A stretch of DNA of 32,000 nucleotides, taken from an uncultured delta proteobacterium (GTDB lineage: Bacteria; Desulfobacterota; RBG-13-43-22). Positions 35-20,723 of the stretch are shown here, piece after piece. The stretch spans positions 30,082 to 62,081 of the forward strand of contig CAVYLJ010000041.1 in assembly GCA_963769305.1 (NCBI GenBank), in the 5' to 3' direction. Numbering within the stretch: the first letter of the stretch is position 1; each line of letters begins with the position of its first letter. Under the pieces are notes generated by a model, which ran no database searches, was not told the DNA's origin, and was given only the letters and a program-made list of their open reading frames with translations. The translations under genes were made by a program, and so were the position numbers.

Positions 35-128
35 AGGATTCGCAGGGGTCAAGGATTCAAGGATATCAAGTGATAAGGCGTTGAGAATTAAACCCTGTGA
101 CCCCTCGAATCCTGGAATCCTCGAACCC
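35..128. repeat. Imperfect hairpin element made of tandem 8-mers, 9 nt downstream of the hslU stop
   Basis: Left arm 35-64 is aggattcgcaggggtcaaggattcaaggat. Right arm 93-128 is ccctgtgacccctcgaatcctggaatcctcgaaccc. aggattcgcaggggtca pairs with tgacccctcgaatcct with one bulge. The repeated ATTCAAGG / CCTNGAAT units allow several pairing registers. Confidence 0.6.
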
Positions 129-136
129 TATTTTCT

Positions 137-1516
137 TTAAAGGATATACCGGCTCAGATCCTCATTCTCTTCAATGGCCGACAGTTTATCCCGGACGTAT
201 TCAGCCGTAATGGTACAGCTTTTTTCAGCCTGGTCCGAGGCTTCGAAAGACAAATCGTCCAACAATCTCTCCATAATGGTATGCAGCCGGCGGGCCCCGA
301 TATTTTCCGTCCTTTGATTGACATTATAGGCGATACGGGCGATTTCAGCCACGGCTTCGGGTAAAAAAGTCAAGGTGATCCCTTCGGTTTTCATCAATTC
401 CACGTATTGGGTGGTCAAGGCCGACTGGGGCTCGGTTAAAATACGGATAAAGTCTTCCTGAGTCAGGGAATTCAATTCCACCCGGATGGGAAACCGCCCC
501 TGCAATTCCGGGATCAAATCGGACGGCTTGGAATTATGAAAGGCCCCGGAAGCAATAAACAGGATGTGATCGGTTCGAACCATCCCGTATTTGGTGGTCA
601 CCGTGGACCCTTCGACAATGGGCAAGAGGTCCCGCTGAACCCCTTCCCGGGAGACATCCGGACCGTGGCTGGAACCCCGCCCGGCGATTTTATCGATCTC
701 GTCTAAAAAAATGATCCCGGTTTGTTCCACCTTGCGGATGGCCTCTTCGGTCACCTTGTCCATATCAATCAGACGCTGAGACTCCTCCTGAACCAGCATC
801 TCAAAGGCCTCCGGGACCTTGATCTTGCGCCGCTTGGTTTTTTTGGGAAAAAGATTACCGAACATGTCCTTCAGGTTGAGGTCCATCTCTTCCATCCCCA
901 CATTGGAAAAGATCTCGACCATGGGGACCACCCTTTGGGATATTTCCATATCCACATAACGCTCTTCCAATTTTCCTTCTCGAAAAAGGCTCCTGAGCTT
1001 TTCCCGGGTGGATAAAGGTTCGTTGACGGGTTTTCGGACCACTTCCAGGATCTTTTCCTGCCCGGCCGGTTCTTCGGGCTTGGGGGTCTCGGACTTTGGG
1101 GGAAGCAACAAGTCCAATAAACGCTCTTCGGCGATTTCCCGGGCCTTGGACATGACCTTTTGTTTTTCTTCGCCCTTGATCATATTAATGGCCAGCTCGG
1201 TCAAGTCCCGAATCATGGATTCCACGTCCCGCCCCACATAGCCCACTTCGGTAAATTTGGTCACTTCCACCTTTAGGAAAGGGGATTGGGCCAATCGGGC
1301 CAGTCGTCTGGAAATCTCTGTTTTTCCCACTCCGGTGGGACCGATCATGATGATATTTTTAGGGGCAATCTCATCCCGAATCGCTTCCGGAACCTGCTGT
1401 CTTCGCCAGCGATTCCGCAAGGCAATGGCCACCGTTCGTTTAGCCGCATCCTGCCCGACAATATATTTATCCAGTTCAGAGACGATCTCTCTGGGTGTTA
1501 AGTAATTATTGACCAA
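137..1516 (-). CDS. hslU: ATP-dependent protease ATPase subunit HslU
   Basis: The translation has [34 protein letters not shown], a Walker A motif [15 protein letters not shown], and full-length AAA+ HslU architecture. The first 19 codons of track ORF 137-1573 overlap hslV, so I place the start at the TTG (1516) just after the hslV stop. Confidence 0.95.
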
Positions 1517-1517
1517 T

Positions 1518-2045
1518 CTATAATTCCTCCAAAACAATCTGCTCGTTGGTGTAAATGCACAGGGAAGCGGCAATCTTCATGGCCTCCCGGGCAATGTCCG
1601 TCGGGCTAAGAGTGGAAAACCCCAACAGGGCCTTAGCCGCCGACAAGGCCAGAGGGCCGCCGGAACCGATGGCCGCCACCTCGTCGTCCGGTTCCATGAC
1701 ATCGCCGGTTCCGGACAATATCAAGATATGATCCTTATCAGCCGCCAGTAGTAAGGCCTCCAGGCGTCGCAAGATCTTATCCGTGCGCCAATCCTTGGCC
1801 ATCTCCACCGCCGCCCTGGTCAAATTCCCGTTAAACTGTTCCAGTTTGACCTCCAACCTTTCAAACAGGGTCAGGGCGTCGGCGGTGGAGCCGGCAAACC
1901 CGGTCAGGATTTGATCATGATACAGACGCCGGATCTTCCTGGCCCGATGTTTCATCACCGTCTGTCCCATGGTGACCTGACCGTCACCGGCGATGACCAC
2001 CTTCCCCTGATGACGCAGGGCCAATATGGTTGTTCCTTCAAACAT
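1518..2045 (-). CDS. hslV: ATP-dependent protease proteolytic subunit HslV
   Basis: [25 protein letters not shown] is the N-terminal Thr protease signature. The track ORF begins at an upstream TTG (2081), but the ATG at 2045 gives the canonical N-terminus. The gene lies directly upstream of hslU. Confidence 0.95.
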
Positions 2046-2046
2046 C

Positions 2047-2953
2047 TTACCCCCTTGGATGGGCCTTTCGATAGACCTCAAGCAAACGACTCATGCTGAC
2101 ATGAGTGTATTTCTGGGTTGTGGACAGGGAGGTATGTCCCAACATTTCCTGAACGACCCGCAGGTCGGCCCCGGCATTCAATAAGTGCGTGGCAAAGCTG
2201 TGACGCAGGGCATGGGGACTGATAGTGGGGGACAGATCTACCCCGACAACCCGTTTTTTCAACCTGCGGGCTACAGTCCGATCGCTGACCCTTTCCCCGA
2301 ACCGGTTCAAAAACACGGCCTGAGGATCGTTGATCTTAAATTCCGATCTTTTTTGGGCCTGCGTCAGGGCCTGGTGAATATTGGCCCAAGGCCCCGAGGG
2401 CCTTCCGTCCCACCGGGACGATCCTTTCCTTCCCCCCCTTGCCGAGGACCCGGACCAAACCCAGGGAAAGATCCAGGGAACTCCAATTCAGATGGGTTAA
2501 TTCACTCAGCCGCAGCCCGGAGGCATAAAAGAGCTCCAAGAAAGCCTGGTCGCGAAGCTCCAACCAGGAATCGGCAATCGGCTCTTGCAGCAAGTGCTCC
2601 ACCTCTTTTTCCGACAGAAAAGGAGGAATCGTTTTTTCGATCTTGGGCGTTCGAACATGGGCTACCGGGTTTTCCAGAACCCATCCCTTCTTCTGGGCAT
2701 AACCAAAACAGGACCGAAGGGCGGCCATTTTTCGGGCCACCGTGCTTTTTTTATTTTTCTTGTGCAGCTCGGCTAAAAAACCCCTTAACAAAGGCAGATC
2801 CAATTGCCCGAGATCTTCCACTCCCTGAAGGGTGAGATATTTCAAAAACTCCTCCAAATCCCGGCGATACCCCCGGAGGGAATGAAGGGACAACCGTCGT
2901 TCGGCCTCATTTTGTTTTAGAAATTCTTCGACGATTTGACGGATCTTATCCAT
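2047..2953 (-). pseudogene. xerC: Tyrosine recombinase XerC/XerD family, split by one +1 frame break near 2375-2393 as sequenced
   Basis: ORF 2336-2953 carries the core-binding domain through [22 protein letters not shown] 2047-2316 carries the catalytic motifs [15 protein letters not shown] and [15 protein letters not shown]. The C-terminal frame stays open upstream ([34 protein letters not shown]). The xerC-hslV-hslU order is a common synteny. Confidence 0.85.
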
Positions 2954-3187
2954 CGGCCCTTTTTATTCCAAAAATATCTAAATTAACCATAAATCAAAAA
3001 AAATGTCCATCAAAAATAGAAACCACGATTGTTGTGATTAGTCTCCGGGACAGGGGGGCTTTTCCCTTGAAAGCAGGATAATGGTCGAATAGTTAGAAGA
3101 CCCGCTTATGTCCGGTTTAAGAAGTGATGAGGTTGAAGGCCCATCCTCAACAAAATGAAGCTTTTTTTAAGACCGTCCTTATAGGAC

Positions 3188-5474
3188 TTAATATTCAATC
3201 AGACCTTTTAATGAAAAAGAAAGGTAGAATGCGGTATTATCCGGTGCGCTCATATAAGAGACTTTTATCCCCCAACACTGTTTGTTGTAAGCCAAAGAGG
3301 CGGTGGTTGCAAAATTTTTATTCTGGTCAAGGGAATACTGTTCTAAAAGATTGGCCGTCCAAATGGGGCTGATTTTCCAGGATATGTCGGCGTTGACCTG
3401 TCTGAACTGGTCCCCTGAATAGGCCAGATATTCCAAATAAGCCCGATTGCCTTTTTTGTCCATCAAAGTCATGGTGTGACTTTGGGTATCCAGTCGGCCG
3501 GTGTAGGGAGACCAGCCCACACTGGATCGTAAGTTCAAATTAGGGCCGGGAATTAATTCCATTTCAGCGGTGACGTCGGAAAAGGGTTGTGACGTGACCG
3601 ATGTGGTAGTCGTGGTGTTGCCGGTGACCGTCGTTGTCGTAGCGGAGCTCCCCGTCGTAATCGTAGTAGGGATAATGTTGGTGGGGATAGTGGTGCCAGT
3701 GGTGGTGGTAGTAATGGTCCCTTCTCGGGCTACATTAATGTCATAAGTTTGGTATAATTTTAGAGTAAGAAAATCCCGGTAGCCGAAGAGGTCCTCCCCT
3801 TGTGGACTCTTCCCCTGCAACGACTTTGAGGTGAAGGTTTGGATCAAATAATAGGTCAGGGTATTGGTCTTGAAAATAGGCGAAACAAAACTGGGGAGTG
3901 AGTCCTGATTAATTTCCGGGATATAATTATAGATGATTTGAGGGCGGATGGTATGTTTTATTTTTTCACCCTCTTCTCCCGAAAGGTTAAAGACCTTTTG
4001 AAAATCGGTAGACGTATCCAGCCGGAAGTTGGGAACCGACCGGTTTCCCCAAGCATCAACGGAATCACTCTGTCTGTTGCTGACCTGATAGAGATCCTCG
4101 GTTATTCCCAGAGAGGCTTCCGCATTGAGATAATTTCTGAATTTCTGCGGATAGTAGAAAGTCGGAGTCAATTCCAACACCTGCCCGCGATCCAGTTCAT
4201 TGCGATAAAAATAATTATAGGAAGAACCCCATTGCAGAAAAAAATTTTTCCCGAATTCCTGTTTAATACTGTCTAAACGGGCAAAAGGTAGCTGGTTCAA
4301 GACATTATTGGTATTGGTTGGATCCTGATAATAGGTGAACCCGCCGGTAAAATTGGTAGTCCCGAAGCTCTTGTTTAATACAGCGGCATTTCTGCGTAAA
4401 ATTTGGGTTTCATCGTCCAGATCCCGATTAAACTCGCTTAAAAAGGTCCGTCGATTACGGTCCAGGCCAAAGGGGTTGCCCTTGAATTCCTTCAGATAAT
4501 CCTGGTCGCTGACCCAATCCAGATCCATTTTCAAATCCACGCCAGACGGCAGTCCCTGATTCATCTTGGAACGGAACCAATACCGTTCCGAATAGGGTTG
4601 ACTGATATTTCCTTTATTAAATTCTTCCTGGCTCACCCCGTCATGGGGGAGATAATCCATCATCAGGGTCCCTTTGGATTGGGCGGAAAGGATATATCGA
4701 TATTCAAGCCCTTGCATAAACCCTCGGCGACTCATCATATCTTCATAAAAGGTGGCATCGGAACTTTTAGAGATAGCCCAATAGAAAGGTAAATTCAGGG
4801 TGAAACCGTCACGGTCTGGATTGACCGAATTCAGGCATCAAAATGCCGCTCTGCCGGTCTTTCTTGGCGGGAAAAACCATATAAGGGGAGTATAAAACAG
4901 GAAAATCCCTTATACGCAATGATGGACTCCAGGCCTGTCCATAACCCTCGACCGTGACCACAATTTCTTTGGCCTTTATCTCCCAGGGGACATTTTCCCC
5001 GTCACAGGAGGTTACCGTTCCATTGAGGACCCGATAGCTTCCTTCCCCGATTTTATAAATCTCTTCACCGGTAACGTAAAAATGGTTCTCTTTTAAGAAA
5101 AGATGTCCTTTTTGTAGTTCCCCGTTTTTTGTCTTTAAATCGACCGTCAGTTCCTCCCCCTGCATTTCATCCCCGGATGAAGTAAATTTCACATGTCCCC
5201 GGGCCTTGGCAATCATGGTTTGGCGGTCTACCTCGGCATAATCACACTTTAGGACCTGAGTGCCCTGTTTGATGATCACATCTCCGATGGCCGTATAGGT
5301 ATCGGTGTCTTGATCATAGGTCAATTCTCGGGCCTCAATATCCCAGGGTTCTTTGGCGGTTCCCGTTCCCGCACCCGTGGGGATCAGGCCCTCTGCCGCT
5401 TTAGAAGATAGGGGAAACCCCAGGATGATCATTGCAAAAACCAGGATCCCCAGGGTCCAGAACCGGTTGGGCAT
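3188..5474 (-). pseudogene. lptD: LPS-assembly outer membrane protein LptD (OstA), split by one +1 frame break near 4809-4826 as sequenced
   Basis: ORF 4809-5522 has a signal peptide (MPNRFWTLGILVFAMIILGFPLSSKA from the ATG at 5474) and an OstA-like N-terminal domain ending PEFGQS. The +1 frame continues DRDGFTLNLPFYWAISKSSDATFYEDMMSRRGFMQGLEYRY into the beta-barrel ORF 3188-4738. Confidence 0.85.
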
Positions 5475-5623
5475 ATTCAACTCCCTAACTCTGAGATAAA
5501 ACCTGCACCGACTTTTTAGCACATCTTATTCCCTATTACAACAGATAACCGCCTAATATATCTGGCCCCCCACCTTTCAATAACTCCCAGAGGGTGACCA
5601 TATCAGCCATGGTTAACATTCAT

Positions 5624-7141
5624 TTAAGTTCGAGTCTTAACCCCTTCTCTTTCCCACCAGGCTCGAGCCTCGCCTACAATAAAAAGTGAACCGGTGATTA
5701 GGATCAAATCCCCTGGTTCGGCTTCCTGCCTGGCTCGTTGTATGGCTGTGGGAATATTTTTTGAAATTTGGCAGGGCCGACTTTCCCCATCGACTAAAGG
5801 TCTTAAGGTCTCCGGGTCGGCTGAGCGATCGTATTCGGCCCGGGTCAAAAAGACCATATGGGCCAAGGGGATTATGACCTTGAATGTCTGTTCGATAGCC
5901 TTATCCTTCATCATCCCGATGATCAGGAAAAGTCTTTTATAAGAAAACACCCGGGGAAGATTCTGGGCTAAGGTCTTCATGGCCCCGGGATTATGGGCCC
6001 CATCCAGGACGATCCAGGGCCTTTCGGATAAAACCTCCATCCTCCCCGGCCAGGCCACCTTCAACAGCCCTTCCCGAAGGGCTTCTTCGTTAACCGGAAA
6101 TTTTCTCTTTAAACAACCGATAACCGTCAGGGCCAGACCGGCGTTCCGGATCTGATGATCCCCAAGAAGGGCGGGGCGAAGCCCCTTTAATTTCGGATTT
6201 CGGATTGCGGGTTGAGGAGTCGGGGTATAGTTCGGAGTTTTGAGTTCGGAGTTCGGAGCAACCAAGGTCTGATCTCTACCCCCTCGTCCCGCGTCCTTCG
6301 TCCAACTTGAATCCAGCAACTTGCATTTTATATCCTCTTCGACTCCGAACACCGAACTCCGAACTCCGAACTGTTGTAACATTCCGCAATCCGCAATCGG
6401 CAACCCGAAATAACTGAACTCCCCATTCCTCAACTTTCTCGTCTTAAAATCCCTTCCGGCCAGTAACATGGGGGCCTGTTTTTCACGGCAGACCTGTTCC
6501 AGGAGACGTTGGACTTTTTTTTGTTCGACCCCGGTTACTAAGGGGACTTGCGGTTTAATAATCCCGGCTTTTTCCAGGGCGATCTTCTCCAGGGTTTTCC
6601 CGAGATATTCCTGATGCTCCAAGGAAACGGTGGTGATGACCGTTATCAGGGGTTCGATGATATTGGTGGAGTCCAGCCTTCCTCCGAGTCCGACTTCCAT
6701 AATAGCCAAGTCCACTTTTTCCCGATAGAAATAGAGTAAGGCCATGGCCGTAACAAACTCAAAGAAGGTCGGGGGTTCGTTAGGATCGGTCTTTCTCTTG
6801 ATCTCTTTAACCAACTCCAGGGTTTTCTCTTTGGAGATCATCCGGCCGTTGATCTGGAACCTTTCCCGGAAATCGATCAGATGGGGGGAGGTGAACAAAC
6901 CAACCTTATACCGGGCTTGACTGTATATGGAGGACAACATGGCCGCTACGGATCCCTTTCCATTGGAACCGGCCACATGGATCATTCGGAGGTGCTTTTC
7001 GGGGTTATTAAAGGCTCGGAGCAGATTTTCCGTTTTAGATAAGCCGAATTTCATACCGAATTTTTGTAAATTGTACAGATAAGACAGGCCCAGATCATAT
7101 TCCAGGTCATAACTCAGACGCTCAAAAGGATGGCCGGCCAT
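5624..7141 (-). CDS. folC: Folylpolyglutamate synthase / dihydrofolate synthase FolC carrying a roughly 73-aa in-frame insertion
   Basis: Mur-ligase P-loop HVAGSNGKGSVAAML, and LLGDHQIRNAGLAL in the C-terminal domain. The track ORF extends to 7330 and overlaps uvrD. The ATG at 7141 follows GGGGAG at a workable spacing; the ATG at 7150 is an alternative start. Confidence 0.9.
   Translation of the reverse strand: MAGHPFERLSYDLEYDLGLSYLYNLQKFGMKFGLSKTENLLRAFNNPEKHLRMIHVAGSNGKGSVAAMLSSIYSQARYKVGLFTSPHLIDFRERFQINGRMISKEKTLELVKEIKRKTDPNEPPTFFEFVTAMALLYFYREKVDLAIMEVGLGGRLDSTNIIEPLITVITTVSLEHQEYLGKTLEKIALEKAGIIKPQVPLVTGVEQKKVQRLLEQVCREKQAPMLLAGRDFKTRKLRNGEFSYFGLPIADCGMLQQFGVRSSVFGVEEDIKCKLLDSSWTKDAGRGGRDQTLVAPNSELKTPNYTPTPQPAIRNPKLKGLRPALLGDHQIRNAGLALTVIGCLKRKFPVNEEALREGLLKVAWPGRMEVLSERPWIVLDGAHNPGAMKTLAQNLPRVFSYKRLFLIIGMMKDKAIEQTFKVIIPLAHMVFLTRAEYDRSADPETLRPLVDGESRPCQISKNIPTAIQRARQEAEPGDLILITGSLFIVGEARAWWEREGVKTRT
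6191..6410. repeat. MITE-like palindromic element (68-nt heptamer-repeat arms, 84-nt centre) embedded in frame in folC
   Basis: Left arm 6191-6258 is tttcggatttcggattgcgggttgagg...agttcggagttttgagttcggagttcggag. Right arm 6343-6410 is ctccgaacaccgaactccgaactccgaact...attccgcaatccgcaatcggcaacccgaaa. About 52 of 68 positions are complementary. The folC frame has no stop across the element. Confidence 0.8.
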
Positions 7142-7142
7142 A

Positions 7143-9260
7143 TTAGACATCTCCCCTTTCCAGGCGGGCATAATCCAGGTGAAGGACCTTGGAGCCGTAG
7201 CGTTTAAAAAGGACGCGAACCTTTCTCTCCCGCGGGGGTTCCTGGATAACCCCATTGCCGAAAAGAGGGTGGAAGACCTTGGTCCCTTTTGAAAACCCGC
7301 TATCCTCTTCTTTTCGGATTTCATGAACATGGTCCGAATCCACCCGGGGCGGATGATTCGGGCCCGGTCTTCCTTGCCGGGCTAATATCTCTTCGGGAAT
7401 ATCGGCGATGAAGTGGCAGAGGTCGTTTTTCTGCCACCCCCCATCCCTTTGGGAGAGGGTGACCGGACAGGTCATAAAAAGTCTTTCTTTGGCCCGGGTG
7501 ATGGCCACATAAAGGAGCCGCCTTTCTTCTTCCATTTCCTCCGAGTCCATCTCGGCATGGGTGGAAGGAAACCGGCCTTCCGCCAGCCAGATGATGAAAA
7601 CGATCCTCCACTCCAGGCCCTTGGCCGAATGGACGGTAGACAGGGTCAACCGGTCCTTTTCAAGATCCTCATGTTCCTCATAGACCTCAAGGCTCAGGTC
7701 CCCCAACAAGGCCTCCGTTTCGGTGTAATTATAACTAACCCGGATGATTTCTTCGATCTCTTTCTGCCGGCGCTGCGGCTCTTCATACAGGCCGGGCATA
7801 AGATTTTTGTAGTAACCCCAGATCAATTCCAGGGCCTCGGTCGGAGTCTGGAGGGGTTGATCGACCAGGGCCTGGAAGAGGGCTGAAAAATCCACAAGTT
7901 GGGATTTAAGGCGGGGATATTGGGAAAGGCATTCCAGGCGTGAAGCCCAGTCCGGGCAGACGGCCATCCGCTCGACGATCTCCTGGGCCCTTTTGGGTCC
8001 CAACCCATCAAGAAGTTTCAGGATTCTTTCCCAGGCCAGTACGTCTTTGGGATTGTGGGCTGCTTTTAAGTACGACAGGAGGTCTTTAATATGGGCCCCC
8101 TCCACAAAGCGACGGCCCCCGTATTTTTTAAATGGGATGCCCTGCTTTTGAAGGGACACTTCCAGGTTAAAGGAATGATGGCCGGCCCGAAACAGGACGG
8201 CCATTTCCTGCCAGGGGATCCCCTGTCTATGAAATTCCTGAAGTTGCTGGGTCACATACTGGGATTGGGACTCTTCGTAAGGCACTTCGAGACAACGGGG
8301 CGGTTCCCCTGTTTTAATGCGGGTAAAGAGGCATTTACTATATCGCTCCTTAGAATAACTGATGACCTTATTGGCCAGGTTCAGGATCGGCTGGGAGCTG
8401 CGGAAGTTTTCCTCTAATTTGATCAGACGGGTTCCGGGATATTGGTTTGGAAAGTCCAGGATATTTTTAAAGTGGGCGCCCCGAAACCCGTAAATCGACT
8501 GGGAATCATCCCCGACTACCATGACATTTCCTCGGGCCAAATGGCGGACCATTTCGGCTTGGAGCAGATTGGTATCCTGGTATTCATCCACTAAAACATA
8601 CCGATAATAAGAGGCCAATTTTTGGGCTACCTGTGCTTCCTGCCTGAAAAGTTGCAGGCAATGACTCAGGAGATCGTCATAATCCAGTAAGCCGTGCTCT
8701 TTTTTGAAGGCTTCATACTCTTGATTCAGGTCCTTGAGCTGGGATGGAGATGGACCCGTTTCCAAAAATGAATCATAAAGCCCTTCTTCGAAGACCTGGC
8801 CCCGGTTGACGATACGACTCAAGAGCTCCAGGAATTCCTTTTTATCAGGCCGATCCTTGTTTTTATCCCAACCTTTCTGTTTGATGATCTTTCCGACGAT
8901 CTCTTCACTGTCTTTCCGGTCCAACACGGTCAACGGACTCCGGAGACCGATCGCCGCCCCATAAATCCTTAGGATTTTATAGGCCAAGGAATGAAACGTC
9001 CCGCCGGCCACTTCCTGACAGGACCGCTCCAGCATGAGTTCCACCCGGCGGAGCATCTCCTGGGAGGCCTTGCGGGTAAAGGTCAACAAAAGGATCCTCT
9101 CCGGTGGGATCCCATTTTCAACCAGCCAGGCCACCCGATAGACCAGGGTGCGGGTCTTTCCGCTTCCGGCCCCGGCAATGACCAAGGTAGGCCCGTCCGG
9201 TGAAAAGACCGCCTCCTGCTGGGCCTTGGTTAGATTTTTTTGATAATCGATTTTCCCCAT
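7143..9260 (-). CDS. UvrD/PcrA/Rep-family ATP-dependent DNA helicase
   Basis: Motif I is VIAGAGSGKTRTLVYR and motif II is VLVDEYQDTN. The C-terminal tail (GTKVFHPLFGNGVIQE...VLFKRYGSKVLHLDYARL) is typical of PcrA/UvrD. The 705-aa ORF is intact. Confidence 0.9.
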   Translation of the reverse strand: MGKIDYQKNLTKAQQEAVFSPDGPTLVIAGAGSGKTRTLVYRVAWLVENGIPPERILLLTFTRKASQEMLRRVELMLERSCQEVAGGTFHSLAYKILRIYGAAIGLRSPLTVLDRKDSEEIVGKIIKQKGWDKNKDRPDKKEFLELLSRIVNRGQVFEEGLYDSFLETGPSPSQLKDLNQEYEAFKKEHGLLDYDDLLSHCLQLFRQEAQVAQKLASYYRYVLVDEYQDTNLLQAEMVRHLARGNVMVVGDDSQSIYGFRGAHFKNILDFPNQYPGTRLIKLEENFRSSQPILNLANKVISYSKERYSKCLFTRIKTGEPPRCLEVPYEESQSQYVTQQLQEFHRQGIPWQEMAVLFRAGHHSFNLEVSLQKQGIPFKKYGGRRFVEGAHIKDLLSYLKAAHNPKDVLAWERILKLLDGLGPKRAQEIVERMAVCPDWASRLECLSQYPRLKSQLVDFSALFQALVDQPLQTPTEALELIWGYYKNLMPGLYEEPQRRQKEIEEIIRVSYNYTETEALLGDLSLEVYEEHEDLEKDRLTLSTVHSAKGLEWRIVFIIWLAEGRFPSTHAEMDSEEMEEERRLLYVAITRAKERLFMTCPVTLSQRDGGWQKNDLCHFIADIPEEILARQGRPGPNHPPRVDSDHVHEIRKEEDSGFSKGTKVFHPLFGNGVIQEPPRERKVRVLFKRYGSKVLHLDYARLERGDV

Positions 9261-9420
9261 ATACCTAAAGTCGCTTTTATCCTTCCCGACTATTTTTCCG
9301 AACTCGGAGATTAAACTCCAAACGGATATTTTTATTAATGCCCCGTCTTACTAAAAAAGGCCGGGACTGTAAACCTATAAATTAGGCTTGCGGCCGGCGG
9401 CTTCAAGAAAAATTTACCAT

Positions 9421-9449
9421 TTGACAACATCCCGCTGTAATCTTATAGT
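9421..9449 (+). promoter_or_regulatory. Sigma70-like promoter for the yedE-tusA-dsrE cluster
   Basis: TTGACA (9421-9426), 17-nt spacer, TATAGT (9444-9449), about 100 nt upstream of the yedE ATG and divergent from uvrD. Confidence 0.55.
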
Positions 9450-9549
9450 TTATCCAAATTTGAGATCCCCGGGGAATCTATCCCTTGTGAACAGGAATCT
9501 TGCCTGATCCCGATTGGCCTTCCGTTAAGAACCATAGAAAGGAAGGGTT

Positions 9550-10737
9550 ATGGCCGAGGAAAGCATCTTAAAGACAAAATTTCGGCAAGGATACAAGGCC
9601 CTTTTTTATCAACAATGGCCGCCCCTGACCGGGGGGGTATTATTAGGGCTCAGTAGCATCTTGATCGTTGCCTGGTCCAGACCGTGGGGTATCGTCGGAG
9701 GAATCCGTAATTGGGCTGACTGGCTTTTTTACGGCCTGGGTTTCTTTCCGGAACGCCCGGAGAACGCCTTCTTTTATTCTTCCTCGATTATGGATATCGG
9801 ATTTTTATTAGGGGCCTTCGGAGCGGCCCTCTTAGCCAAGGAGTTCGCCCTGAGAAAAACACCGGCCTTGGAGATCATAAAAGGGCTGGCCGGCGGGGTC
9901 TTCATGGGAATCGGCTCGGCCCTGGCCATGGGTTGCAATGTCGGGGCTTTTTATACCCCCTTGATCAACCTTTCGGCCAGCGGTTTCCCGATGCTGGTCG
10001 GACTGACCATCGGCGCTTTTATCGGTTTAAAATATCTTTTATGGGAACTGGAAAAATTCCCTCCCCCATCCGGATTTACACCCACGGCCTCTTTAGGAAA
10101 AAAAAGGGTTGATTGGAAGATTATCCAACCTTATTTAGGCACCCTGGTCTTTATTGGTTTGATCGTCTGGGCTTACTGGTATTCCGGAAAAGCCTATACG
10201 GAAATCGGCGGCCTCCTGCTCTTCGGTGCCGCTTTCGGAATCATCCTGCAGCGCTGCCGCTTTTGTTTTGTCCGAGCCTTTCGAGACCCTTTTATGACCG
10301 GAGAGGCGACCATCGCCAAGGCCATCGCCGTCAGTATTATCATCGGCGCCATAGGCGTAGCGGTTTTGAAATGGAGCGGATTTCGTCAGGAAAGCCTCTA
10401 TGTCATCCCGGCCTTCTGGTGGGGGTCGCTGGTGGGTGGCACCATATTCGGGATCGGAATGGTCATCGCCGGCGGATGCGGAAGCGGAACCTTGTGGCGG
10501 GTATCCGAAGGACAGCTTAAGCTCTGGGCGGCCCTTTTTACCTTTGCGACGACCAATTCCTTGATGAACGTCCTTCTCCGAACCACCGGCTGGCGTCAAA
10601 AATTGGGGAAGGCGGTATTTTTGCCCCAGACCTTCGGCTGGGGCGGAAGTATCCTCTTCATTGCCTTTATCCTGCTGATATGGTATCTATTAGTAACCTG
10701 GAATGAAGAGAGTAATAAATTCACAGTAGGATTATAA
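9550..10737 (+). CDS. YedE/YeeE-family sulfur (thiosulfate) transporter
   Basis: Polytopic membrane protein with two conserved Cys-loop motifs, GSALAMGCNVGAF and VIAGGCGSGTLWR, as in YeeE/YedE. It is followed by a TusA-like gene. Confidence 0.85.
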   Translation: MAEESILKTKFRQGYKALFYQQWPPLTGGVLLGLSSILIVAWSRPWGIVGGIRNWADWLFYGLGFFPERPENAFFYSSSIMDIGFLLGAFGAALLAKEFALRKTPALEIIKGLAGGVFMGIGSALAMGCNVGAFYTPLINLSASGFPMLVGLTIGAFIGLKYLLWELEKFPPPSGFTPTASLGKKRVDWKIIQPYLGTLVFIGLIVWAYWYSGKAYTEIGGLLLFGAAFGIILQRCRFCFVRAFRDPFMTGEATIAKAIAVSIIIGAIGVAVLKWSGFRQESLYVIPAFWWGSLVGGTIFGIGMVIAGGCGSGTLWRVSEGQLKLWAALFTFATTNSLMNVLLRTTGWRQKLGKAVFLPQTFGWGGSILFIAFILLIWYLLVTWNEESNKFTVGL

Positions 10738-10742
10738 AAACC

Positions 10743-10815
10743 GGTATAAGGTGCAGGGCATAGGGTTTAAGGAATGCCCCTTGCCTTGGACCTTATACCT
10801 TAAACCTTGCACCTT
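10743..10815. repeat. Intercistronic hairpin built from NNNNAGG / CCTNNNN heptamers (yedE-tusA spacer)
   Basis: Left arm is ggtataaggtgcagggcatagggtttaagg. Right arm is ccttggaccttataccttaaaccttgcacctt. The heptads tataagg, tgcaagg and tttaagg occur on both arms as complements. The right arm abuts the tusA RBS GGAAGGAGG. Confidence 0.65.
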
Positions 10816-10832
10816 GGAAGGAGGAAATCATC

Positions 10833-11069
10833 ATGGAAGATATTAAACCCGATCAAACCTTGGATGCCCGGGGACTCAGTTGCCCCATGCCGGTTTTAAA
10901 AACCAAAAAGGCGATTGAGAATCTCAAGTCCGGAGAAATCCTGGAGGTCTTAGGAACCGATCCGGGGACCAGAAACGACATGCCCGGCTGGGCCAACCGC
11001 ACCGGGAACATTTACCTCGGGGAGAAAGAAGACCAAGGCTTTATTCGTTTTTACGTCAAGAAAAAGTAA
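10833..11069 (+). CDS. tusA: TusA/SirA-family sulfurtransferase
   Basis: 78 aa. LDARGLSCPMPVLKTKKAIENL carries the CPxP active-site motif. A strong RBS precedes the gene. Confidence 0.9.
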   Translation: MEDIKPDQTLDARGLSCPMPVLKTKKAIENLKSGEILEVLGTDPGTRNDMPGWANRTGNIYLGEKEDQGFIRFYVKKK

Positions 11070-11091
11070 AATGTGAAATAAGGAGCAGGGC

Positions 11092-11400
11092 ATGGCTGAA
11101 AAATTGGGGATTTTCGTTTCCTCCGATAAAAACCTCCGGCATGTGATCGGAATCACCAAAGCCGCCGAAGCGGCCGGCAAGGAAGTAGTCCTTTTTTTTA
11201 CCCACAAAGGGGTCCTGCTGACCCAGGTGCCGGAGTTCAAGGAGCTGATCGGCCACGGAAAAAAATCCTTGTGTAATGTGAGTTATGAATCCAAAGGATT
11301 GAAAGGGAAGCCAGCCCCTGGAATAGCAGAAAAAGATTTCGGCACTCAGGCCCGCCACGGGGAGATGATCGACGAAGTGGACCGTTATATCGTCCTGTAA
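11092..11400 (+). CDS. DsrE/DsrF-like family protein
   Basis: 102 aa. KLGIFVSSDKNLRHVIGITKAAEAAGKEVVLFFTHKGV has the DsrE-fold pattern. It lies directly after tusA. The family call is made by eye. Confidence 0.6.
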   Translation: MAEKLGIFVSSDKNLRHVIGITKAAEAAGKEVVLFFTHKGVLLTQVPEFKELIGHGKKSLCNVSYESKGLKGKPAPGIAEKDFGTQARHGEMIDEVDRYIVL

Positions 11401-11707: not shown

Positions 11708-11823
11708 CGGTTCGAGGTCCCAGGTACAAGGGGGATCAGATTCTCGTATTCACGCGTTGTAGGCCCCGGCATGTGATTTTTCTTTAAACCTTGTACCTCG
11801 TACCTTGAACCTTGTACCTTGAG
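11708..11823. repeat. Intercistronic hairpin built from TNCNAGG / CCTNGNA heptamers
   Basis: Left arm is cggttcgaggtcccaggtacaagggg. Right arm is ccttgtacctcgtaccttgaaccttgtaccttgag. About 20 of 25 arm positions are complementary, and the central loop is about 60 nt. Confidence 0.65.
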
Positions 11824-11836
11824 AATATGAGGTGCC

Positions 11837-12011
11837 ATGAAACTCTTACACATATATCGTTCCAAGCCAACCGAAGAAGTCCTTAAATTAGCCAAAATCC
11901 TTTCCGAGGGAAACGAGGCGGACAACTTTTTCTCTTTATGAAGGAGAGGTGGATTACGCCAAATTGGTGGAGCTTATCTTTTCCCATGATAAAGTCGTCA
12001 GTTGGTGGTAA
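11837..12011 (+). pseudogene. Small conserved hypothetical protein (about 58 aa), fifth gene of the cluster, with one +1 frame break at the T5 run near 11927-11938
   Basis: ATG at 11837 after GAGGTG gives MKLLHIYRSKPTEEVLKLAKILSEGNEADNFFSL then a stop. The +1 frame continues YEGEVDYAKLVELIFSHDKVVSWW to a stop at 12009-12011. Confidence 0.5.
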
Positions 12012-14732: not shown

Positions 14733-14780
14733 AGTTTTTTCTTGACTTTAAGAGGAAACAATATAACTATATAATCCATT

Positions 14781-15116: not shown

Positions 15117-15129
15117 AATTTTTTTTGAG

Positions 15130-15154: not shown

Positions 15155-15171
15155 GTTAATGAGTATTTTTT

Positions 15172-16113
15172 ATGGAACCCCATCATCATAATCATGACTC
15201 CGAAGCCTCCTGGGGTAAACGCCTGTTCGTCACCATGGTGATGAACCTGATTATCCCGGCTGTTCAGATCGTGGCCGGCATCATGGCCGGCAGTATGGCC
15301 CTGATCAGCGATGCCCTGCACAACCTGAGTGATTTCGCTTCCATCCTGATCAGCTATATGGCCTTAAAAATCGGAAAACGCGGTCCCACGCTTTCCCTGA
15401 CCTTCGGCTATAAACGGGTGGAGGTCATGGCCGCAGTCTTCAATACGGCCCTCCTCTTCGGGGCCGCCCTGTTCATCGCTGTGGAAGGCTGGATTCGTTT
15501 AAAAAATCCGGTTTTGATTCGGGGAAACATGGTCATTTGGGCCGCCCTCCTGGGTGTTATCGCCAATGGCATATCGACCTGGATGCTCCACGCCGGGGCC
15601 AAAGAAAACCTCAACATGCGCGGGGCCTTTCTCCATATGTTGACCGATGCCCTGACTTCCCTCGGAGTGGCCGTACTGGGCGTGGTCTGGCTGCTCCGTC
15701 CCTGGTACTGGCTTGATCCCATCGTATCCTGGGTTATCGTAGCCCTGATCCTTTACAGCGGCTGGGGTATTTTAAAACAAGCCCTGCTCATCTTGATGAA
15801 CGCCACCCCGCCGGGTATCGACCTGGAGGCCATACAAAAAGAAGTAGTATCCCTGGGGGGGATAGAGGATCTTCATCATCTTCATGTCTGGAACCCCTCC
15901 TCCGGGACCATCGCCCTGGCGGCCCATGTCATCGTGCCGGACCAGATGCTTTGCCAGGTGGACGAGTTGGCTAAAAAAGTGCGGGACCTGCTCTTATCTA
16001 AATTCAACATCAATCATCCCATCCTTCAATTTGAGAGCAAGTCTTATGAACCCGTGGATTTACTATGCACGATATGTAAGGACAACCATTCTTCAGAAAC
16101 AAGTGCTCAGTAA
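15172..16113 (+). CDS. czcD: Cation diffusion facilitator (CzcD/ZitB-like Zn/Co/Cd exporter)
   Basis: His-rich N-terminus MEPHHHNHD. TM2 motif ALISDALHNLSDF and TM5 motif AFLHMLTDALTSLGV. Cytoplasmic C-terminal domain with HHLHVW. Confidence 0.9.
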   Translation: MEPHHHNHDSEASWGKRLFVTMVMNLIIPAVQIVAGIMAGSMALISDALHNLSDFASILISYMALKIGKRGPTLSLTFGYKRVEVMAAVFNTALLFGAALFIAVEGWIRLKNPVLIRGNMVIWAALLGVIANGISTWMLHAGAKENLNMRGAFLHMLTDALTSLGVAVLGVVWLLRPWYWLDPIVSWVIVALILYSGWGILKQALLILMNATPPGIDLEAIQKEVVSLGGIEDLHHLHVWNPSSGTIALAAHVIVPDQMLCQVDELAKKVRDLLLSKFNINHPILQFESKSYEPVDLLCTICKDNHSSETSAQ

Positions 16114-16125
16114 GGAGGCCTTATT

Positions 16126-16359: not shown

Positions 16360-16391
16360 CCCAGGTAAAGCCGATACAAAAAGGAAAATCT

Positions 16392-17315: not shown

Positions 17316-17319
17316 TCCG

Positions 17320-18239: not shown

Positions 18240-18257
18240 AAGGAAGGAAAATTAAAA

Positions 18258-18646
18258 ATGAACAACTGGCTCTTATCGAAAAATCGGGGTTGTGCTCCTG
18301 ATCGGATTTTTATTTTTGGTGGGAGCCCAACCATCCTGGGCCGGCAGCTTATAAAGAGGTCCCGGTCAAAGGCATGGTAACCCTGGTTGACCTGGGGGCC
18401 AATGCCTGCATTCCCTGCAAGATGATGGCACCCATCATGACCAAGCTGGAGAAGGATTATCAGGGCAAGGCGGCCGTCGTTTTTATTGACGTCTGGAAGT
18501 TCCCGGAACAGGCCAAACCTTTCAATATTCAGGTCATACCGACCCAGATTTTCTATGATAAAACCGGCAAAGAAGTCTTCCGTCATGAAGGGTTTATGAG
18601 CGAGAAAGATATTGTCAGCCAATTAAAAAAGATGGGGGTCAAATAA
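18258..18646 (+). pseudogene. Short periplasmic TlpA/ResA-like thioredoxin, with two +1 frame breaks in the signal-peptide region as sequenced
   Basis: ATG at 18258 gives MNNWLLSK (frame A). Frame B reads KIGVVLLIGFLFLVGAQPSWAG. Frame C reads AAYKEVPVKGMVTLVDLGANACIPCKMMAPIMTKLEKDY..., which is track ORF 18374-18646. Confidence 0.7.
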
Positions 18647-18670
18647 TCTTTAAGGTCAGGTGAGGTTTCA

Positions 18671-19375
18671 ATGCTGGAAAATATTTTTCTGACCGTCAAT
18701 GACTGGCTTATCGGGGAACCCTACATCGCCGCCCTGGGGGCCTTTTTCTGGGGCATGATCAGCGTGGTCTTCAGCCCCTGCCATCTGGCCTCCATCCCGT
18801 TGATCGTGGCCTATGTGGGCGGGCAGGAAAAGACGGTCCTGGCCCGGCAGGCCGGATACTACTCCGTGGCCTTTACCTCCGGACTGTTTATCACCATCGC
18901 CCTGATCGGCATCATCTGTTCCCTTCTGGGACGTATGCTGGGCGATGTGGGCAACTACTGGCAGATCCTTATCGGGTTGATCCTGATCTGGGTGGCCCTG
19001 GGGATGCTGGGGGTCGAGAAATGTTCCATGTCCGGGAGCTTATTATACCGGCTGAATTTAAAAGGCATCTTTGGGGCCTTTGTCCTGGGTCTGGCCTATG
19101 GGGTGCTTTCCGGGTCCTGCACCTTCGGCTTTATCGCCCCTATCCTGGCCATCATCACAGTTCAAGAAAAGGTGGCCACCGGGATCCTGTTGATTTTGCT
19201 GTTCGCCGTCGGCCATTGCCTGCCCATCGTGATCGCCGGCAGTTCGACGGCCGCCGTCCGTAAAGTCATCGAAAACCAGTCCTGGCAGACCGGCGGCCAG
19301 TGGTTCCGCCGCGGGGCCGGGGTGCTCATCGTGTTGCTGGGCCTTTATTTTATTGTCAATCCTTTTATTACCTAA
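18671..19375 (+). CDS. ccdA: CcdA/DsbD-type transmembrane thiol-disulfide electron transporter
   Basis: Six-TM protein with the two conserved membrane Cys (VFSPCHLASIPL and LSGSCTFGFIAP). Confidence 0.85.
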   Translation: MLENIFLTVNDWLIGEPYIAALGAFFWGMISVVFSPCHLASIPLIVAYVGGQEKTVLARQAGYYSVAFTSGLFITIALIGIICSLLGRMLGDVGNYWQILIGLILIWVALGMLGVEKCSMSGSLLYRLNLKGIFGAFVLGLAYGVLSGSCTFGFIAPILAIITVQEKVATGILLILLFAVGHCLPIVIAGSSTAAVRKVIENQSWQTGGQWFRRGAGVLIVLLGLYFIVNPFIT

Positions 19376-19433
19376 CATAACCTATTCAAAAGGCTTGTCT
19401 CAGTCAGCCTTATAAGGAAATAGTCTCCATGCA

Positions 19434-20590
19434 ATGAAAATCGTCTTATTTTGATTCTTGGCCTGGCCGGTTTCGTGGTCATGGCCGATAACTGGGTCGT
19501 CTCACCCATTCTGCCGGCCATTGCCAGTTCCCTCCGGGTATCACCGGTGCAGGCCGGGCTGCTTATCAGTGCCTACATGATCCCTTTCGGGCTTTTTCAA
19601 TTAGTCTTCGGCCCTCTGGCCGATCGGTATGGGAAACAGCAGGTCATTACCTTTTCCATGATCTTCTTTACCATCGGTACGGCCCTCTGCGGCTTGGGGC
19701 TCGGGCTTTTCGATCTTGGGCTTTACCGCGCCCTTACCGGAATATTCGCCGCCTCGGTCATGCCCATCTCGCTGGCCCTGATCGGCGACCTTATACCCAT
19801 AGAGCGGCGGCAGCAGGCCATCGGGACTTTTATGGGCATCGCCTTTTTAGGCCAGGGACTCAGCATGGCTATCGGCGGGTCCATCGCCTATTTTGTTAGT
19901 TGGCGCGGGGTCTTTTTTACCTATGCCGCCTTGTCCGTCCTGTCCACCATAATGCTTATTCGGGGCCGGACGGAAGGCTTCCTCCAAAAGAAATCCCCAT
20001 AGTCTGTTTTTTAAACCCTACCTGGACCTGATTGGTAAGTTCAAAAAGTCTACTGATTTATCTGATCATTCTGGTCGAGGGCATCCTGATCATCGGTTCT
20101 TTTTCCTATTTGGGGGCCTATACGGAGCTTCTCTTCCATTTTAACTACCTTTATATCGGGCTGATCCCTGACCGCCTTCGGGGCCGGGGCCGTCATCACC
20201 GGCCGCCTGGTCGGAAAAATCGTGCCCCGCCTTGGGCGGCCGAATACCTTGATCCTGGGGTTGATCGTGGCCATGGGAGCGGATTTCCTGTTGTATGGGG
20301 TCAAAACCAGTGCGCTGATGCTGATCCTGGGGATAGCCCTTCTGGGTATTGGATTCATGCTGGCCCATTCGAGTCTGCTGACTTTTGCTACGGAGTTCGC
20401 CAAGATGGCCCGGGGCACGGCCATGTCTTTAGTGGCCTTTTGCTTTATGGGTGGCGGCGGGGTCGGCACGGCCATCGGGGGGAAAGTAATCTCTTCCATC
20501 GGATATGCCCGCTTTTACGGTCTTTACGGTCTCTTTTTGTTCGGACTGGTCATGGCTACCCTCATGGTTGTCCGCGAAGCCAAGGTGTAA
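19434..20590 (+). pseudogene. MFS transporter with four frame breaks (one -1 near 19449; +1 near 19998, 20050 and 20168)
   Basis: The N-terminal half (19451-20002) has the MFS motif GPLADRYGKQQV. The pieces SLFFKPYLDLIGKFKKS, LLIYLIILVEGILIIGSFSYLGAY..., and LTAFGAGAVITGRLVGKIVPRLGRPNTLILG...VREAKV lie in successive frames. Confidence 0.7.
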
Positions 20591-20607
20591 AAGGCAAATA
20601 ATTTTTC

Positions 20608-20636
20608 TTGACATCCTCGGCCTGTCTTCTTATAAC
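20608..20636 (+). promoter_or_regulatory. Sigma70-like promoter for the DUF486 gene
   Basis: TTGACA (20608-20613), 17-nt spacer, TATAAC (20631-20636). Confidence 0.6.
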
Positions 20637-20665
20637 TCATCCGGTTTCAAATCCAAAAACTCTGC

Positions 20666-20723
20666 TGCGGGTTCCACGTTGCGCGTTGGGAGTACCGCGT
20701 AATCCGCAACAAAAAATTTTTTT
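20666..20723 (+). promoter_or_regulatory. Structured leader: 8-bp-closed hairpin (TGCGGGTT...AATCCGCA) followed by A6 U7, just before the DUF486 RBS
   Basis: tgcgggttccacgttgcgcgttgggagtaccgcgtaatccgca, then acaaaaaattttttt, then GAAGG. It also has the heptamer-hairpin architecture seen elsewhere in the window. Confidence 0.4.

Follow-up and report, generated by a model that had tools for sequence, protein, structure and literature searches.

Four loci of the 32,000-nt stretch of DNA analysed here (the window) carry hairpin elements of one plan: a G-rich array of short tandem units, a spacer of 4-90 nt and a complementary C-rich array. We suggest, with a probability of about 0.5, that these loci (loci 1-4) are dispersed hairpin repeats similar to the STRR elements of cyanobacteria, which may evolve by slippage in 7-nt steps and by template switching from arm to arm, and which may be tolerated between operon genes and in protein loops. 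The window comes from an uncultured sulfur-cycling bacterium, and its relatives are Thermodesulfobacteriota or "delta proteobacterium" MAGs. The features are as follows.

30..131, minus strand: locus 1, hairpin element in the hslU-argB interval (hslU stop 137, argB start 19; minus strand)
5624..7141, minus strand: folC (folylpolyglutamate/dihydrofolate synthase), host gene of locus 2
6190..6411, minus strand: locus 2, two-tier hairpin, in frame within folC
9290..9335, no strand assigned: possible decayed remnant of the CCGAACT family upstream of uvrD, TTCCGAACTCGGAGATTAAACTCCAAACGGA, judged by eye
10743..10818, plus strand: locus 3, hairpin in the yeeE-tusA interval (yeeE stop 10737, tusA start 10833)
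11708..11823, plus strand: locus 4, hairpin located after a 94-aa ORF (stop 11696) and before a small ORF starting at 11837
20666..20708, plus strand: locus 5, short weak hairpin followed by A6T7

Period-7 arrays with mirrored arms

In the window, Tandem Repeats Finder detected period-7 or period-8 arrays on each side of loci 1-4, and an inverted-repeat search paired these arms with each other (I1, I3, I5, I6, I8, I10 and I12). The predicted fold energies of the four loci lie between -31 and -95 kcal/mol, and their z-scores relative to dinucleotide shuffles lie between -2.5 and -6. The first-pass annotation had proposed five loci of one hairpin design; our results bear this out for loci 1-4 and not for locus 5. 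Locus 5 was rejected as a member of the class because its fold is weak (z-scores of -0.75 and -1.8) and its periodicity (14/21) is at chance level, being reached by shuffles about 1.4 times per window. It is best read as an ordinary (bidirectional) terminator-like site, and by eye its T7 tail fits this assignment.

When lags of 3-12 were compared in the window, strong autocorrelation was observed at period 7 only. With 17 of 21 matches as the threshold, 6 period-7 arrays are found in the window, as compared with 0.005 in 200 composition-preserving block shuffles, and 81 related loci (1.39 Mb) contain 116, as compared with 0.8 in shuffles. A mirrored partner is present for 51% of the arrays and for 2.2% of controls, and close convergent pairs of heptamer arrays on opposite strands occur, as among the Xanthomonas-type arrays. 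Extrapolation from folC-centred loci gives a density of about one element per 10-20 kb. The order of the arms is biased: the G-rich arm comes first in 122 cases versus 27, and this bias holds 5' to 3' on either strand. It is not what a purely neutral mutational model predicts, and it hints at selection or a directional mechanism.

Intergenic loci 1, 3 and 4

Every intergenic copy in the window has co-directional genes on its two sides. The arms of locus 1 (approximately 35-75 and 91-131) are built from units of 7 or 8 nt of the GGATTCAA / GGTTCGAG type. In the sense direction, CCUUUUU comes after the hairpin, and the argB ribosome-binding site after that; the minus-strand fold has a predicted energy of -39.2 kcal/mol (z -3.7). 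Its orthologue is L003:9750-9905, and a homologue (L004:5070-5160) is found at a different, non-syntenic locus. The left arm of locus 3 is composed of GGTATAA, GGTGCAG, GGCATAG and GGTTTAA, and the right arm of six CCTTNNN units, which end on the tusA ribosome-binding site GGAAGGAGG; the fold energy is -41.9 kcal/mol (z -6.0). In locus 4 (-44 kcal/mol, z -3.6), a left arm of GGTTCGA, GGTCCCA, GGTACAA and GG is separated by a 57-nt spacer from five ACCTTGN units.

Orthologous hairpins of locus 3 are present in L006 and L008 and absent in L010. The locus 4 site is empty in L010, L011 and L062, which have a 17-nt spacer there; L004 possesses half an element, and L008 retains the outermost ends alone. 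Thus, the syntenic comparison among close relatives, a check that had been advised, shows that presence and absence vary at these intergenic sites. No U tract follows the stem in loci 2-4, and the U5 of locus 1 (minus strand) was judged terminator-like by eye; a terminator consensus scan (loops of up to 8 nt) flagged none of loci 1-5. As for the possible remnant at 9290-9335, the corresponding position upstream of uvrD in L005, L008 and L017 is occupied by full ATTGCGG/ATTTCGG arrays.

An element translated in frame within folC

The product of folC has 505 aa and is identical to P0001. The first-pass annotation had overlooked that locus 2 lies within an open reading frame. Its outer arms are ATTTCGG/ATTGCGG arrays (6190-6218 and 6383-6411), its inner arms are AGTTCGG arrays (6229-6258 and 6342-6372), and the centre contains a CCCTCGT array without a pairing partner (6281-6303); the fold energy is -94.9 kcal/mol (z -5.4). 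Locus 2 adds 67 residues to a loop that has 5 residues in insert-free relatives. In the AlphaFold2 model, residues 250-307 of FolC have a pLDDT below 50, and the insert sits between two confident strands, in place of the 9-residue turn of 1O5Z. The insert lies in a surface loop and is probably disordered when translated. A phmmer search with the insert peptide gave no matches.

The folC units contain no stops in the array or in its complement, whereas the intergenic units do have stops, and among the relatives compared the intact folC inserts are all in frame. The left array begins exactly at the native Tyr-Phe-Gly codons TAT TTC GGA, where insert-free relatives have GGT TTT GGA. Across relatives, the size of the insert at this one loop ranges from 0 to about 115 extra aa; length and sequence vary even among close relatives, and near-identical strains differ almost wholly within the insert. 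Orthologous copies differ by whole units, and ATTGCGG is replaced by AGTTCGG in phase. In L003 and L004, the left arm has gained TATAGTTCGGAGTT, which is the exact reverse complement of the right arm; such a gain is a signature of arm-to-arm template switching. Most orthologous folC inserts keep hairpin potential (z -4 to -7), in contrast to control folC segments. Orthologous copies turn over very fast, yet they mostly remain self-complementary.

Unit families and dispersal

The earlier view that the architecture is conserved but the sequence is not was overstated. Loci 1, 3 and 4 have a common CAAGG/CCTTG core, and the folC units AGTTCGG and ATTGCGG represent widespread unit families. Arrays of the CAAGG type, of AGTTCGG and of ATTGCGG are found repeatedly, in many unrelated contigs from metagenomes and in phage-like ones. 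Exact three-unit arrays of window units were found in at least 120 metagenome contigs and in 17-58 IMG/VR contigs, and the contigs carrying window units span 33-71% GC. In IMG/VR, 20-35% of the arrays of window units are mirrored, as compared with 0/38 for control units. Because most AGTTCGG arrays in metagenomes are solitary, without a mirrored partner, arrays and hairpins may have partly separate causes. The elements also occur in Nitrospirota, besides the Thermodesulfobacteriota lineage, and AGTTCGG arrays are found in frame within dnaG, uvrD, a miaB-like gene, an NRPS gene, a hybrid kinase gene and others.

Several copies at different sites share a centre or a loop. L054 contains two copies of about 170 nt, 650 nt apart, which are 85-90% identical including the non-repetitive centre; in L008, one GC-rich palindrome is found in both folC and the uvrD upstream region; and one phage-like contig has at least 10 hairpins of the (GTTCAAN)n type, in which the loop is conserved. 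Some elements are nested within the loops of others. Pairwise alignments of copies at different sites gave no target-site duplications or sharp ends. No associated enzyme for dispersal was found, and a Pfam scan covering 10 ORFs on the left side of the window (137-11400) detected no transposase domain. An IS3-family element, which is unrelated to the repeats, adjoins an extra copy in L004.

A fast-diverging family and local generation had been offered previously as alternatives. Local generation is supported by the whole-unit changes, the in-phase replacement and the reverse-complement arm gain; a dispersed family is supported by the L054 pair, the non-syntenic L004 homologue, the palindrome shared within L008 and the phage-like contig. 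These observations support the view that the two are not mutually exclusive.

Comparison with known repeat systems

Heptamer repeats have been known in cyanobacteria since 1990, and the canonical STRR units are CCCCAGT and others. The units here (AGTTCGG, ATTGCGG and NNCAAGG) are not canonical STRR units, the hosts are Thermodesulfobacteriota and Nitrospirota MAGs instead of filamentous or heterocystous cyanobacteria, and the elements here are translated in frame within protein genes. The two systems are alike in their tandem 7-nt units, in the existence of several unit families (per genome in the case of STRR) and in hairpins between co-transcribed genes. STRR had been named at first pass as the nearest analogy, and published work agrees: hairpins of tandem 7-bp units are described between co-transcribed cyanobacterial genes, in the hupS-hupL, nif and hoxW regions, and transcript stability or translational coupling has been proposed for them (PMC2670836). 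STRRs are also reported inside the functional gene rnpB (Vioque 1997). In the portions of the STRR literature available to us, we found no account of arm-to-arm template switching or of a G-arm-first bias.

According to Rehm et al. (2015, PMC4692102), Xanthomonas GGGAATC heptamer arrays are over-represented in intergenic DNA, with 70-75 array pairs per genome that converge on opposite strands and are capable of forming stem-loops; in the available parts of that paper, we found no in-frame coding copies reported. The Xanthomonas arrays have a single G-rich consensus with G-quadruplex potential, whereas here there are many units with no runs of three or more G, and none of the window arrays is built on a GGG-containing unit of the GGGAATC type. 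Cyanobacterial STRR hairpins and the Xanthomonas arrays are the sole published descriptions that we found of hairpins with tandem 7-nt arms, and these, with the in-frame Rickettsia palindromic elements (RPEs), are the closest precedents. RPEs are palindromic repeats found in frame in unrelated housekeeping genes, at positions compatible with the fold (PMC10969869). The folC element is likewise inserted in frame into a housekeeping ORF at a structurally tolerant site. However, RPEs are Rickettsia-specific families of about 100-150 bp with conserved sequence and peptide and without tandem-heptamer arms, whereas the inserts here have no conserved consensus or peptide and vary between close relatives.

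REP, BIME and REPIN elements are short extragenic palindromes, which are abundant between operon genes and form RNA stem-loops; REPs have a conserved 20-40 nt consensus and a RAYT transposase, possess no tandem units and are not known to lie in frame within genes. The elements described here are likewise short palindromes between operon genes that form RNA stem-loops. They are, however, not strictly extragenic (folC, and other copies in dnaG, uvrD and further genes), and they show unit families and some conserved loops among the loci compared. REPINs are hairpins made from two inverted units (PMC3116915). As regards MITEs, the arms of the elements here are inverted, and in pairwise alignments of copies at different sites neither a flanking duplication nor sharp ends were seen. 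Beggiatoaceae TAACTGA repeats lie mostly in intergenic DNA, immediately before start codons, and are found across distant phyla (PMC4679880). The present elements resemble them in these respects and in being tandem heptamers, but the Beggiatoaceae repeats have one unit and are almost all direct, with a single inverted case. Borg tandem repeats are described as fast-evolving and as creating disordered protein regions, and in both respects the present repeats are alike. The Borg repeats inside genes reportedly have unit lengths in multiples of three, and they are direct, not mirrored.

Alternative explanations

It is unlikely that the elements are selected RNA structures, that is, intercistronic terminators, attenuators, mRNA stabilisers or translational-coupling devices in which compensatory evolution keeps the pairing and the repeats are incidental or supply alternative registers. 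Such a role would suit the co-directional genes around the intergenic copies, the sense-strand U5 that follows locus 1, the extra CCUU units of loci 3 and 4 that abut downstream ribosome-binding sites (window, L006 and L008) and the yeeE-tusA hairpin in three orthologues. The 5'-to-3' sense of the G-arm-first bias on both strands is what a transcription-linked constraint would give, and for the STRR hairpins of cyanobacteria, roles in stability and in translational coupling have been suggested (PMC2670836). However, folC and other essential ORFs contain this architecture too, and a function of that kind is implausible there; in close relatives, one arm or the entire element is missing from the corresponding sites although the genes are still present; the changes come as blocks of units, not as scattered compensatory pairs; and an Rfam search matched no family. 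Purely local generation, by slippage and inverted duplication in place with no dispersal, would make the shared units a convergence on easily slipped heptamers. The start of the folC left array exactly on native codons fits this idea, and L008 retains only the outermost ends of locus 4, as if arrays grow from inside. Moreover, it was noted in 2007 that heptamer repeats are the most frequent long simple repeats of bacteria (as PMC4679880 and PMC4692102 summarise), and their prevalence in many bacteria is attributed to polymerase slippage (PMC4679880). We nevertheless consider an origin without dispersal quite improbable: copies at different sites have non-repetitive centres or loops in common, the same units occur in phage-like contigs and across 33-71% GC, and mirroring depends on the unit (20-35% versus 0/38).

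Only a slight probability is given to a classical non-autonomous transposon (MITE or REPIN-like), in which a transposase encoded elsewhere would bind to the heptamer arrays as reiterated sites. Dispersed copies with conserved centres, the nesting of elements in the loops of others and the IS3-family neighbour in L004 are in line with transposition. Nevertheless, the alignments of copies at different sites have neither target-site duplications nor sharp ends, no terminal sequence is conserved across units, no candidate enzyme was identified, and orthologous copies last over long divergence while their interiors change. To our knowledge, contiguous 7-nt sites are also unlike known transposase-binding arrays. 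Chance, or an assembly artefact of long-read metagenome bins, is refuted. Although lptD, xerC and a small ORF of the window probably contain indel errors and the closest relatives are MAGs based on nanopore reads, the arrays outnumber those in shuffles more than 100-fold, and the same structures are found at the same sites in relatives from other assemblers, as judged by contig names (RBG_13_43_22 scaffold, MEGAHIT- and NODE-style).

Proposed mechanism and significance

As STRR-like dispersed hairpin repeats, the elements would behave as follows. Arrays would grow and shrink by replication slippage in 7-nt steps, and intrastrand template switching, with one arm serving as the template for the other, would keep the arms complementary, so that the hairpin shape would be maintained mainly by the mutational process and not by selection. 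We favour this because the architecture is also retained within an essential ORF, in which a terminator would do harm, and because the intergenic sites differ in presence and absence among close relatives. Copies may occasionally seed new sites, often within arrays or hairpin loops that are already there. Transcribed as part of an operon mRNA, the elements would fold as long stem-loops, and REP/BIME and STRR hairpins suggest by analogy that these could protect 3' ends, bring about partial termination (locus 1, with its U5 tail) or block the ribosome-binding site of the next gene (loci 3 and 4). Within folC, the survivors would be stop-free units that total a multiple of three and are translated as a disordered loop.

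More tentatively, tandem-heptamer palindromes might be a distinct, self-perpetuating class of DNA across phyla (cyanobacteria, Xanthomonas, Thermodesulfobacteriota, Nitrospirota and phages), defined by architecture and the G-rich-arm-first rule and not by sequence. A dedicated mechanism might then make and spread them, and routine in-frame colonisation of essential genes might be a general source of hypervariable disordered loops.

The window and its relatives provide a tractable comparative system, in which the same loci can be traced across a graded series of relatives. Because one copy lies in an essential gene, maintenance of the hairpin by mutation can be told apart from selection for RNA function, and the G-rich-arm-first rule calls for a mechanistic explanation. 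Because stop-free arrays extend ORFs upstream, gene calling can be misled. The elements enlarge and diversify FolC, DnaG, UvrD and similar proteins, and they would make very stable structures inside mRNAs.

Repeat-armed hairpins in the window

The window encodes hslU, hslV, xerC, lptD, folC, uvrD, a YeeE-family sulfur transporter and TusA, together with small proteins that we take to be DsrE-like; in the one small protein scanned, Pfam gave no domain. The first-pass annotation had marked five loci at which one arm of a hairpin is a tandem array of a 7-mer or 8-mer and the other arm is the complementary array:

30-131, minus strand: locus 1, between the hslU stop codon and the argB start codon
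6190-6411: locus 2, within the folC reading frame, without a stop codon (a location that had been overlooked)
10743-10818: locus 3, between yeeE and tusA
11708-11823: locus 4, between a 94-aa ORF and a small ORF
20666-20708: locus 5, an ordinary small hairpin followed by A6T7

Tandem Repeats Finder located period-7 arrays in the window at 6190-6210, 6229-6258, 6281-6303, 6342-6372, 6383-6411, 10784-10818 and 11788-11821, and the period-8 arrays of locus 1 at 49-75 and 103-129. The arms were paired by an inverted-repeat search (6190-6258 with 6343-6411, 10748-10772 with 10791-10815, and 11709-11731 with 11789-11811). The predicted folding energies were -34 and -39 kcal/mol for locus 1, -89 and -95 kcal/mol for locus 2, -42 kcal/mol for locus 3 and -44 kcal/mol for locus 4, and for these loci none or at most one of 200 shuffles folded equally well. 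When lags of 3 to 12 were tested, strong autocorrelation in the window was seen only at lag 7. At a threshold of 17 matches in 21, the window contained six period-7 arrays, as compared with 0.005 per block shuffle. Because independent detectors, folding and shuffle comparisons agree, loci 1-4 are real and far beyond chance, and the mirrored tandem-repeat design is borne out at these four. Locus 5 is not a convincing member of the class: its fold z-scores were -0.75 and -1.8, and its periodicity (14/21) was reached only at a laxer threshold, at which about 1.4 hits are obtained in shuffles. Rfam at gathering thresholds and a tRNA/tmRNA scan gave no match in the window. A consensus terminator scan is blind to these hairpins because its loops are limited to 8 nt.

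Several other features of the window were observed. A frameshift interrupts lptD and one small ORF, and xerC is seemingly split in the same way (the regions, xerC included, are 4739-4808, 2316-2336 and 11837-12010). The window lptD has one extra base relative to the related locus L003, and lptD and xerC are intact in the related loci L001/L003 and L002/L004. These frameshifts are probably indel errors of long-read assembly and not real pseudogenes. In the low-GC spacer at 28-29 kb, there is a tandem duplication of about 218-220 bp (28423-28558 and 28643-28776; 87-nt core 98% identical), both copies of which carry a promoter-like TTGACA-N17-TATATT site and a small terminator-like hairpin.

An in-frame copy in folC

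FolC homologues from related metagenome bins vary in length from about 430 to 548 residues, and this variation falls mostly in a single loop that lies between the conserved motifs FSYFG and LLGDHQIRNA. The segment is 39 residues long in the insert-free loci L010, L011, L012 and L062, as compared with 106 residues in the window. The inserted peptides are the translation of heptamer arrays: AGTTCGG encodes SSEFGVRSSEFGV, its complement encodes TPNSELKTPN, and CCGCAAT encodes IPQSAIRNPKL. The predicted peptides of the window insert include SSVFGVEEDIK and TPNYTPTPQPAIR. The three folC units are free of stop codons both as array and as complement, which is not the case for the intergenic units. 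A phmmer search of 1.84 billion representatives gave no match to the 77-residue insert peptide; it was searches of nucleotide sequence that revealed in-frame copies.

In Thermotoga FolC (PDB 1O5Z), the corresponding site is a turn of nine residues (257-265). In the AlphaFold2 model of the window FolC (mean pLDDT 84), pLDDT falls below 50 at residues 250-253 and 255-307, which are flanked by two confident strands. Strong hairpin potential is kept in most orthologous folC inserts (z-scores of -4 to -7), and control folC segments are without it. Between otherwise identical strains (FolC proteins P0002 and P0121, and P0006 and P0123), the differences lie almost only in the FolC insert. The last 12 or so residues of P0002 and P0121 also differ, as if one DNA sequence had been translated in two different frames. 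The mechanically called folC ORF (5624-7330) starts 63 codons ahead of the database start and shares 188 nt with uvrD. Gene calling can be misled by such upstream extensions and by stop-free arrays, and several arrays that a crude ORF classification placed at the 5′ ends of genes may be intergenic.

Distribution of the arrays

We surveyed 81 loci (1.39 Mb) around folC in GTDB genomes. The numbers of arrays with periods of 4 to 12 were 1, 2, 12, 116, 12, 19, 3, 8 and 14, respectively, as compared with about 0.3-0.8 per period in shuffles. A reverse-complement partner lay within 300 nt of 51% of arrays but of only 2.2% of control windows. From these folC-centred loci, the density is estimated at about one element per 10-20 kb. 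Arrays are common in the clade of the window and in many Nitrospirota/Thermodesulfovibrionales bins, where the units are quite different, and are nearly absent (2 in 230 kb) from a group of loci labelled Candidatus Adiutrix or unclassified Deltaproteobacteria. In Nitrospirota, at least six different FolC loops have in-frame hairpin inserts. In the sister clade without the folC insert (L010, L011 and L062, at about 15790-15930), a conserved intergenic hairpin has tandem 9-mer arms, GTTTATTTG and CAAATAAAC. Thus, the repeat-armed design is not tied to period 7.

Three tandem units of AGTTCGG are present in at least 120 metagenome contigs with 33-71% GC. Among the contigs listed, 768 kb contained 273 period-7 arrays; among the matches listed, only 12 of 134 AGTTCGG arrays were mirrored, and about 28 array positions lay deep within long ORFs. 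Pfam domains in nine of ten array-bearing ORFs (the tenth had none) included those of DnaG, UvrD, a MiaB-like radical-SAM enzyme, an NRPS module, a hybrid histidine kinase, an M16 peptidase and a glycogen-debranching enzyme. Exact three-unit arrays of AGTTCGG, ATTGCGG and TTCAAGG occurred in 17, 58 and 45 IMG/VR contigs, respectively, and those of two composition-matched control units in 5 and 15. The mirrored fraction was 20-35% for the three sets, as compared with 0/38 for the controls.

The G-rich arm usually precedes its partner

The order of the arms in mirrored pairs is strongly biased. In three data sets, the 5′ arm, on either strand, was the G-rich arm by 32 to 10, 27 to 7 and 63 to 10. 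Taken together, for the window and the related or matching loci L003-L342, the G-rich arm was 5′ in 122 mirrored pairs (about 82%) and 3′ in 27, and a related purine-first bias had a binomial p of about 1e-11. Among the matches listed, AGTTCGG preceded CCGAACT in all 12 mirrored pairs, and the reverse order was never seen. A neutral palindrome-forming process would not predict this rule. Selection may act against exposing the C-rich, Rho-attracting arm ahead of the transcription of its partner. The arrays may also originate on a G-rich nascent strand, with subsequent fold-back copying.

Local turnover and dispersed families

In the alignment of the window with L003, L004 and L006, AGTTCGG units take the place, in phase, of the ATTGCGG units in the outer left arm of the folC insert in L003 and L004. 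Part of the new sequence, TATAGTTCGGAGTT, is the exact reverse complement of AACTCCGAACTATA in the right arm. In L005, it is instead the central GGACGAA array to which the inner left arm is complementary, and in L004 the right arm is deleted. As judged from the alignment, these are block changes, as would be expected from slippage and arm-off-arm copying, and not scattered compensatory substitutions. The intergenic elements also vary. Between yeeE and tusA, the window, L006 and L008 have a hairpin built of different units, and L010 has none. At locus 4, L010, L011 and L062 have no element but a 17-nt spacer; only the outermost ends are left in L008, and one arm is missing in L004. The loop of the locus 1 orthologue is about 95 nt longer in L003, and a single arm is left in L004. 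In the Nitrospirota locus L054 (5880-6040), every third GTAAC unit of the folC insert is GTTAC, which removes an otherwise in-frame TAA; this 21-nt super-period, seen by eye, is consistent with selection for a translatable insert.

Evidence of dispersal was also found. A clear homologue of locus 1, with the same termini and centre, occupies a different site in L004, directly past the stop codon of the 94-aa ORF. An IS3-family insertion (HTH_Tnp_1 and rve domains; L004:5414-6831) splits this ORF and adjoins the extra hairpin copy. L054 contains two copies of one element of about 170 nt, the first within folC and the second 650 nt downstream; their identity, centre included, is 85-90%. In L008, ATTKCGG arrays enclose the same GC-rich palindrome, CCTCCGGNCCAGAGGGGCCTCCGACCCGGAGG, at two sites, in folC and upstream of uvrD. 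The phage-like contig L322/L283 from IMG/VR carries at least 10 (GTTCAAN)n hairpins with the conserved loop GTTAAAnnCCnCTCTTTCCCAAC (L322:1178-9211), often nested within outer (GAGCATN)n arms, and has roughly one heptamer-armed hairpin per kilobase. These nested arms share a two-tier design with the folC element of the window. BLAST gave no plasmid match to a (GTTCAAN)n hairpin. A second type of in-frame palindrome, AATCCCCCC...GGGGGGATT, was observed in Nitrospirota folC (L057:9880-10040; L067, folC at 5022-6584); it encodes PPLxKGG-like peptides and in some cases sits within the loop of a heptamer hairpin. On comparison of these loci, local turnover and family dispersal appear both to occur. 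The first-pass interpretation is thus partly right. [quoted passage not shown]

Discussion

We considered whether the elements belong to a known class. Integron attC sites do not fit: the arms are unlike GTTRRRY/RYYYAAC cores, and the surrounding genes are housekeeping genes. The Pfam domains of the nearby recombinase are those of a XerC/D-type tyrosine recombinase, and its gene adjoins hslVU, which is a normal chromosomal arrangement. Of the units, only the CAAGGAU type fits CsrA-binding GGA arrays; the motifs are located in stems, and GGA is missing from other units. Mimicry of Shine-Dalgarno and anti-Shine-Dalgarno sequences fails as a general rule for many Nitrospirota units, and the sequences gave no support for CRISPR-like or telomere-like arrays.

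Parallels have been described in other bacteria. In filamentous cyanobacteria, hairpins of 7-bp STRR sequences are described as "not unusual"; they lie between hupS and hupL, and also near hoxW, and roles in transcript stability or translational coupling have been proposed (PMC2670836). Xanthomonas has 70-75 convergent pairs of GGGAATC arrays (PMC4692102). According to the summary in PMC4679880, the commonest long simple repeats in many bacteria are heptanucleotide repeats, for which polymerase slippage is the tentative explanation. Rickettsia palindromic elements are characterised by palindromic insertion in frame (PMC10969869). We found no published description of such elements in Thermodesulfobacteriota or Nitrospirota, or of their in-frame copies, and a full-text search for the exact arrays returned no relevant paper. 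The interest of the present elements rests on the folC copy, the wide occurrence of in-frame copies and the directional rule. With these three results, the old question of what makes and maintains heptamer repeats becomes more testable.
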